NCBI GenBank assembly: GCA_964016885.1
Contig: OZ024759.1
Location: 35,216,001 to 35,280,000, forward strand
Length of the DNA stretch: 64,000 nt
DNA from: Eledone cirrhosa
Taxonomy: Eukaryota
Reading direction: 5' to 3'
The position numbers and the translations under genes were made by a program. Below, in pieces: positions 12,005 to 12,390 of the stretch. Position 1 is the first letter of the stretch; every line of letters starts with the position of its first letter. Below the pieces are notes generated by a model, which did not search any database, was not told where the DNA came from, and saw only the letters and a list, made by a program, of their open reading frames with translations.

Positions 12005-12390
12005 AAAGGGAGGTAACTCTGTAATATTTTGAGATGATTTACCTCCCTTTGAAACACCTTCGTCACCGTCGTTACCACCGTCGGCACCTTCGTAACCGTC
12101 GTCACCTTTACCGCCGCCACCTGGTGGCGGAGGAAAAGATACCGACGAAGACGGTGGTGCACCGTCGTCTTCGTCGGTTTCTTTACCGCCGCCACCTGGT
12201 GGCGGAGTAAAAGATACCGACGAAGACGACGGTGCACCACCGTCTTCGTCGGTATCTTTTCCTCCGCCACCAGGTGGCGGCGGTAAAGGTGACGACGGTT
12301 ACGAAGGTGCCGACGGTGGTAACGACGGTGACGAAGGTGTTTCAAAGGGAGGTAAATCATCTCAAAATATTACAGAGTTACCTCCCTTTA
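12005..12390. other. GC-rich multi-hairpin core of palindrome 1, axis at 12197
   Basis: 9-mer CACCGTCGT-like repeats, then hairpins CCGCCACC-T-GGTGGCGG and ACCGACGAAGACG-N12-CGTCTTCGTCGGT alternating with 75-bp period. Confidence 0.9.

Follow-up and report, generated by a model that had tools for sequence, protein, structure and literature searches.

The GC- and CpG-rich core described here is a real and unusually elaborate palindrome axis. It lies in a 64,000-nucleotide stretch of Eledone cirrhosa DNA (contig OZ024759.1, positions 35,216,001 to 35,280,000), hereafter the window, in whose own numbering all coordinates are given. In a self-BLAST, the core lay midway between inverted arms of up to about 4.3 kb, and two such palindromes were resolved in tandem, with axes at 12197 and 22521. 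In the reading that we consider probable, a fold-back event seeded at the hairpin gave rise to a chromosomal palindrome whose axis is the core, and inversion of the centre together with conversion has kept it symmetric. No published description of the core or of the palindrome element was found in the literature searched, which consisted mostly of papers outside subscription.

Architecture and folding of the core

The core and its parts are the following, the strand being named where a feature has one.

12005–12389: GC/CpG-rich palindromic core; the axis is the unpaired base 12197
11963–12004: poly(dA)/poly(dT) tracts adjoining the core; mirror 12390–12432
12005–12050: left outer hairpin, 12-bp stem and 22-nt loop; mirror copy 12344–12389
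12052–12105: 9-mer/21-bp direct-repeat run; mirror about 12289–12343; TRF period 21
12106–12138, minus strand: left hairpin H1, centre 12122
12135–12184: left hairpin H2, centre 12159.5
12179–12215: flip/flop segment of 37 bp, holding the central H1, centre 12197
12210–12259: right hairpin H2', centre 12234.5
12256–12288, plus strand: right hairpin H1', centre 12272

A hairpin census gave a spacing of 37.5 bp for the five inner hairpins, and TRF reported a period of 75 at 12106–12310. The core is made of six 37-nt half-modules in alternating orientation, which align without gaps, 25 of the 37 columns being invariant. The first-pass annotation, made by a model from the letters, had described a nested multi-hairpin core built by repeated fold-back of a module of about 37 bp, with an outer hairpin, a run of 9-mers and a series H1-H2-H1-H2'-H1' of 75-bp period; the five hairpin centres, the half-module alignment and the two TRF periods bear this out. 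A sub-palindrome of 108 bp centred on H2, with 51 of its 54 pairs formed, is found in each of the two isomers of the core described below. Two motifs seen by eye, a Kozak/E-box word in H1 and a signal-joint-like centre in H2, were set aside.

With 39 CpG per 386 bp, the core has a CpG o/e of 1.42 and a GC content of 53%, which rises to 60% at 12055–12340. The 64-kb window has 37% GC, a CpG o/e of 0.45 and a median of 5 CpG per 386 bp. The AT-rich, CpG-poor background initially ascribed to the core is therefore correct for the window, but not for the 0.9-kb flank beside the core, which is AT-rich with a CpG o/e of 0.81–0.85 and is not strongly CpG-poor.

When folded, the whole core gave z = −45, and none of 100 shuffles was equally stable. 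The half core alone scored −56.8, versus −27.0 ± 3.3 for dinucleotide shuffles and −25.0 for triplet shuffles (0/200 as stable in both cases). The first-pass annotation had allowed for either one long stem or a branched structure. The single long stem reached −259.5 kcal/mol, whereas folds restricted to local pairs reached −91 to −126 kcal/mol. Because the long stem is far more stable, the branched form could be transient only, and is thermodynamically minor rather than an equivalent of the stem. These calculations predict that in duplex DNA the core would act as a cruciform or a long hairpin, not as a five-eared structure.

Read in one frame, the core modules consist mostly of GGT, GAC, GGC and GAA triplets, and other triplet arrays are present in the window. 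The module could thus be a degenerate triplet microsatellite (GGT/GAC/GGC) that was folded back and has no further meaning, an explanation which is compatible with a fold-back origin and which is also favoured by weak DNA matches to similar Gly/Asp-rich low-complexity genes. We find it unlikely. The six other triplet arrays hold 0–3 CpG each, their alignment to the core scores 14–20 against shuffle maxima of 17–25 (one of the six passes its own maximum, by 1 point), and no 12-mer is common to the core and the rest of the window outside the two cores. None of the six arrays in the window proved to be a relative of the core in a non-palindromic context, the finding that would have spoken against the first-pass annotation.

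Two tandem palindromes and their arms

The arms, their main components and the second core map as follows.

7901–12196, plus strand: arm A, which reaches at its outer end into an old LINE fragment, 7724–8083
10571–11066: TA/CA minisatellite block; the left type is shared by A and C, the right type, at about 13327–13949, by B and D
11067–12178: inner arm, a homogenised tract that differs from the right arm by 1 indel and, over 1112 bp, by 3 substitutions
11614–11739: about two tandem units of 58 bp; mirror 12657–12781
11774–11946: AT-rich 62/31-bp tandem array; mirror 12449–12621
12198–18227, minus strand: arm B, interrupted by a LINE; ends at the mirror of 8669
15640–17983, plus strand: LINE with an RT + PHD ORF, a (GAT)n tail and a 7-bp target-site duplication (TSD); arm B only
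18225–27062: complete second palindrome, with arms C and D on either side of axis 22521
18225–22520: arm C, from self-BLAST
22329–22713: second core, the 'flop' isomer, with no mismatch over 376 bp to the reverse-complemented first core
22522–27062: arm D, from self-BLAST

Compared in direct orientation, the two cores show nine differences, all inside 12179–12215. The outer markers, by contrast, are direct between the copies, with no substitution in the minisatellite block between A and C (0/496) or between B and D (0/635). Since these markers are direct and the cores are reverse complements, the centre alone was inverted. The limit of the inversion falls between ±18 and ±985 bp of the axis, and the arms of the second palindrome are exactly symmetric from ±19 to ±984.

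Differences between arms amount to at most 0.3% within 1 kb of the axis, versus 1–4% farther out. For palindrome 1, 3/1112 inner positions differ against 33/1662 outer ones (p = 4×10−5), and for palindrome 2 the figures are 1/1113 and 19/1656 (p = 8×10−4). The two palindrome copies are 1.2–1.6% apart overall, with 2 differences in 1608 between the inner parts of A and C. Outside the minisatellite block, 21 sites were informative, and they fell into three incompatible partitions of 7, 10 and 4 sites; four of the ten sites of the second partition are in the flip segment. Provided the assembly is correct, such a mosaic points to exchange among the arms. The assembly sequence thus carries the two marks looked for in a chromosomal palindrome, arm homogenisation and inversion of the centre. 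Inverted spacers and homogenised arms have been described in primate X palindromes (PMC8327919) and in the chromosomal palindromes of PMC3068965, and template switching has been described as bringing about the like in short inverted repeats (PMC8604942). Our palindromes resemble those of sex chromosomes, as portrayed in the accessible text of PMC8327919, by their homogenised arms, inverted centre and change concentrated at the axis. However, sex-chromosome arms measure 8–140 kb, mostly carry genes and surround spacers of at least 77 bp, whereas here the arms are at most 4.3 kb, non-coding, and separated by almost no spacer.

The assembly could be responsible for part of what is seen as a tandem copy, a flip or mosaic variants. 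In that case, the second copy would be an unpurged haplotype or a mis-join, and the flip and the mosaic would derive from mis-phased or fold-back reads. Near-perfect palindromes of kilobase size are difficult for every sequencing platform, the inner copies are near-identical, and their overall distance could be allelic; an N gap of 200 bases is also present elsewhere in the window (46668–46867). A chimeric read, however, would not make left and right types of minisatellite block, a TSD-flanked LINE in one arm, or a distal divergence of 1–4%. The join between B and C contains no gap, and its 3-bp microhomology (18225–18227) lies between non-homologous positions. The nested core, moreover, is present in either copy alone. 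A partial artefact of this kind appears to us quite improbable.

What the arms are made of was examined next to their flanks. The decayed LINE fragment at 7724–8083 is intact in arm A plus the left flank, and arms C and D both cut through it. As this fragment runs from arm A into the left flank and is cut in C and D, the arms are copies of resident chromosome DNA. They also contain a small foldback (10006–10283), microsatellites and half of another foldback, seen also at 37543–37733, and short pieces of them are common to dispersed repeats. An 18-nt motif has 19 matches, all inside the palindromes, throughout the minisatellite block and once per inner arm (10585–11589 and 12806–13949); this recurrence suggests that the block and the inner arm are one unit. 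The LINE of arm B starts without the endonuclease part and has an uninterrupted RT + PHD frame of 592 codons. Its relatives stand at about 50–67% identity, the named ones, at about 50–56%, being hydrozoan, amphioxus and fish; an octopus RTE LINE is described in the available part of PMC9115989.

A second CpG-rich patch (15 CpG, o/e 1.31), at 9090–9270 with copies in the other three arms, lies where the arms are most divergent. It carries an open frame of about 92 codons without homologue. Heat-shock- or STAT-like words seen by eye in the 62-bp array were set aside.

Repeats of other kinds were recorded across the window, where microsatellites are dense. A near-perfect fold-back at 2001–2623 has arms of 304 bp, 99% complementary, around a 15-nt loop, and no Pfam family in three frames. 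Four units of about 42 bp, two direct then two inverted, form a small tandem-plus-inverted repeat at 40713–40875. Small palindromic elements flanked by TA and sharing arm sequence are located at 37262–37404, 52960–53058, 59035–59114 and 59177–59338; some contain what is presumably a hammerhead-like word, and Rfam returned no match on them. Long minisatellite arrays occupy 2631–4943, 30240–31943, 33643–36235 and 42749–43421, with units of 28, 39/25, 28 and 32 bp, respectively.

Fold-back origin or mobile element

The nested symmetry, the two isomers, the centre-ward gradient of identity, the host-type arms and the junction microhomology were all seen directly, and three steps would lead to them. 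In the first, a GC-rich 37-nt module with a quasi-palindromic H1 tip would have been copied back at H2 and once more at the following H1, so that H1-H2-H1-H2'-H1' resulted; beyond H1, no more than two template switches would be needed. In the second, single-stranded DNA priming itself at the hairpin would have copied up to about 4.3 kb of ordinary flank as a mirror image, and further switches, at the 3-bp microhomology and at an unrelated join after 27062, would have yielded two tandem palindromes. In the third, the axis would have remained recombinationally active. The flip of copy 1 and the flop of copy 2 may go back to an exchange, or a template switch, that turned the centre round between the near-identical inner arms. 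The outer arms would drift, while the inner 1 kb or so may be kept homogeneous by conversion or by the repair of cruciforms. The pattern of this last step is visible in the assembly; the mechanism is the one that we infer.

Fold-back palindromes are recognised by a short inverted repeat at the axis, here H1 at both 12197 and 22521, by microhomology at junctions, as between B and C, and by arms that mirror resident host DNA continuous with a flank, here with one of the two. Fold-backs are also common in the window, where 15 of 23 fold-back rows lie outside the palindrome block and merge to 12 loci. That the core was the axis and likely seed of a kilobase palindrome had been proposed in the first-pass annotation, and the self-BLAST map, the hairpin census and the half-module alignment support it. 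Fold-back models of inverted triplication by self-priming have been put forward (bioRxiv 2025.01.14.632981, PMC10622511, PMC7467729). Going by the accessible portions of that literature, fold-back inversions and inverted triplications share with our locus the alternation of direct and inverted segments and two types of junction, of which one bears a hairpin and the other microhomology. They differ in that both hairpin junctions here are one nested five-hairpin core, and in that our locus is old enough for divergence and for the gain of a LINE.

Some observations count against the fold-back reading. For the inner arm and the core, neither a source copy elsewhere in the 64-kb window nor a database relative was found, and the original far-side sequence of the core is not visible. 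The GC-rich tip, the flip/flop and the successively longer tandem arrays inboard of it are also the build of a hairpin-ended element. In that reading, two ends of an unrecognised mobile element, hairpin-ended or of foldback type (a parvovirus-like ITR, a poxvirus-like concatemer junction, or a Foldback/Mutator type), would meet head to head at the axis; these ends, the inner 1.1–1.6 kb on each side, would later have dragged host flank into the palindrome. The inner unit is indeed flanked by TA repeats on both sides. TATAWAW is found twice on the outward strand, about 500–560 bp from the axis, and not at all on the inward strand; TATATA is, however, ubiquitous in the DNA of the window.

The core has the imperfect terminal palindrome with flip/flop isomers by which a parvovirus ITR is recognised. 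A GAC repeat resembling a densovirus NS1 site, seen by eye, was set aside; a literature search found no paper on the GAC repeat as an NS1 site. In densovirus ITRs, flip/flop segments are 23–55 nt long and TATA boxes lie inboard (PMC3738899, PMC3820778, PMC12297876). The core shares with parvovirus and densovirus ITRs a GC-rich imperfect palindrome, a short flip/flop segment, here of 37 bp, and TATA-like boxes inboard. Unlike these ITRs, which form a Y or an I of 107–130 nt, it consists of five ears in a 370-bp hairpin, is joined to arms of host repeats, and has no NS1 or VP gene beside it. Eighteen translations of the core and of about 3.4 kb of the 4.3-kb arm C gave no Pfam family above cut-off, a single DUF coming up at E 0.12, and the six-frame translation of 13940–15639 gave none either. 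In these 24 arm and core translations, neither NS1, Rep or capsid nor any other Pfam family was present, and no credible homologue was found; NS1/Rep (SF3 helicase) or VP coding was not found inboard of the hairpin, a search that heavily decayed genes could escape. Against phage and plasmid DNA, the half core gave short low-complexity matches only, at no more than 34% coverage, and these weak matches come from similar Gly/Asp-rich low-complexity genes.

The tandem arrays beside the tip recall vaccinia ends, which, according to the available part of PMC8956199, have flip/flop forms, an AT-rich tip and tandem repeats inboard, and a mismatched flip/flop tip with inboard tandem arrays is a feature of poxvirus concatemer junctions. 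The core, in contrast, is GC-rich and chromosomal, and no viral genes were found with it; the AT-rich, incompletely paired tip and the resolution sequence of poxviruses (the latter compared by eye) were both absent. As in the Foldback/Mutator element Tm1, seen through the available part of PMC3169594, the arms are long, inverted and non-coding, with internal tandem repeats. Unlike in Tm1, the outer ends are ragged and lack the repeats, which are near the centre, and no TSD of 8–10 bp was found at five boundary pairs, the longest shared word being at most 5 nt. A layout analogy, and only that, can be drawn with bacterial BIMEs (PMC2817692, in part), in which short palindromic modules are regularly spaced in alternating orientation; here the DNA is animal, the modules have no linker, and there is no RAYT.

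The first-pass annotation had likened the core to a branched ITR or origin. The flip/flop centre is ITR-like, as proposed, but viral coding and viral homologues were not found, and the arms hold host repeats and run into the old LINE fragment that is continuous with the left flank; a viral ITR is thus unsupported. An element end of some unrecognised type is weakened by the failed coding, homologue and TSD tests and seems to us improbable, and we retain the chromosomal fold-back.

Coding and RNA candidates were considered as well. The core is open in most reading frames, and its Gly/Asp/Pro-rich peptide is identical on both strands. It was rejected as coding: the frame has no Met, none of 113 homologue candidates passed, and the differences between modules are not limited to third codon positions. 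The 92-aa ORF at 19427–19702 was rejected as a gene, having no homologue among proteins of 50–161 aa. The outward frame 23130–23636 gave a single match at E 1×10−4 among 1.84 billion proteins for this one frame, to an internally repeated ORF, and this was taken as chance. A spliced gene in the arms was also dropped: a stretch taken for an exon turned out to be one half of a foldback that is dispersed in the window, and the AATAAA words are part of tandem arrays. Eight AATAAA on the inward strand are found in the arrays at 11564–11929 and 12698–12762, and a splice-acceptor-like site at 11496. Rfam had no match at gathering over the 64 kb, where sub-threshold miRNA and snoRNA models only were reported, and ARAGORN found no tRNA. 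The core as a miRNA was discarded, the model scoring a generic hairpin or microsatellite far below gathering.

Elsewhere in the window, spliced C2H2 zinc-finger exons, which we take to be SP/KLF-like, lie on the plus strand at 51780–51872 and 52677–52865; the first finger exon of this gene was not found in the window. These exons, the RT + PHD LINE and the dense microsatellites mark the DNA as animal. A GC-rich frame of 219 codons at 39769–40428 has no Pfam family above cut-off and presumably resembles a retroelement C-terminal domain.

CTCF consensus at the hairpin tips

The first-pass annotation had also proposed iterated protein-binding sites. A concrete candidate is the CTCF consensus, which is matched exactly at each H1 tip; the binding itself is putative. 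The consensus used is the human one (PMC6746451, available in part). Four of the matches are given here.

12114–12127, minus strand: left H1, pointing outward
12189–12202, minus strand: central H1
12267–12280, plus strand: right H1', pointing outward
22516–22529, plus strand: central H1 of the second core

All six exact matches in the 64 kb are on H1 tips of the two cores, with 0 expected in 100 shuffles, and off these tips the 64 kb contain no match, even at one mismatch. The strand of each match is set by the single unpaired loop base of its hairpin. As a result, the middle match flips strand between the copies, and the outer two point away from the axis. A match arose in 0/20000 dinucleotide shuffles, in 0.2% of triplet shuffles and in 0.25–1.0% of same-triplet hairpins, rates to be read for a motif picked out by eye, post hoc, among about eight motifs considered. 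Furthermore, all six matches go back to a single event that was then copied, and the consensus is quasi-palindromic, so that hairpins are prone to match it. Module positions 1–8, which bear the motif, are invariant, whereas 12 of the 29 others vary (p = 0.03); hairpin homogenisation also predicts invariant tips. CTCF and CTCF-like motifs are known from cephalopods and other spiralians (PMC9023564, PMC13652810, PMC10658182, each in its available part). On balance, binding of CTCF at the H1 tips in vivo is a tentative proposal, to which we give somewhat less than even chances.

If the core has a function at all, the likeliest, judging from its motifs and composition, would be that of a CTCF-type binding cluster, a CpG island between dA:dT tracts. 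It could then be a selected regulatory element, with three CTCF sites in a CpG island at the palindrome centre, comparable to the enhancer HS1.2: the palindrome would be kept for its function, and the flip would alter the polarity of the middle site. Such an explanation is compatible with fold-back and adds selection to it. The matches on H1 tips, their low null rates, the invariant motif positions and the spiralian motifs speak for it, as does the human IgH 3' regulatory region, in which, according to the accessible part of PMC3068965, HS1.2 lies in two palindromes with 3-kb arms and opposite centre orientation. In both loci, inverted arms of kilobase length enclose a central element, the whole exists as two tandem copies whose centres are opposite, and tandem repeats lie near the centre. 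In our case, however, the spacer is 37 bp and a hairpin, the arms are perfect over about 1 kb, and the locus is known from its sequence alone. The nearest gene pieces found are the zinc-finger exons at 51.8–52.9 kb, although nearer small exons are possible. Given this distance, the post hoc choice of a human and quasi-palindromic consensus, and the single event behind the six matches, we think that selection of this kind is unlikely.

Divergent CTCF sites mark domain boundaries in vertebrates. A more elaborate version, less likely again, would be an invertible insulator in an invertebrate, with three putative CTCF sites in a CpG island at the axis of a self-homogenising kilobase palindrome. 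The outer pair would be fixed in divergent, boundary-type orientation, and inversion of the centre would switch the middle site, between two sites left and one right and one left and two right. Besides making the sites, the hairpins would act as seeds of the palindrome, and fold-back copying from them may spread the cluster.

Kilobase palindromes are normally unstable when they are near-perfect and their arms are hardly separated by a spacer. This locus, where the two tip isomers are preserved next to each other and homogenisation falls off along a gradient that can be measured, is a natural record of the formation and persistence of a palindrome in an animal genome, and flip/flop tips are by themselves no marker of a virus. 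Should the inner unit turn out to exist in many copies, it would constitute a new family of hairpin-ended repeats. The role of CTCF orientation in spiralian genome folding is described as unresolved in the available part of PMC10658182, and if CTCF binds the H1 tips, the locus would put that role directly to the test.
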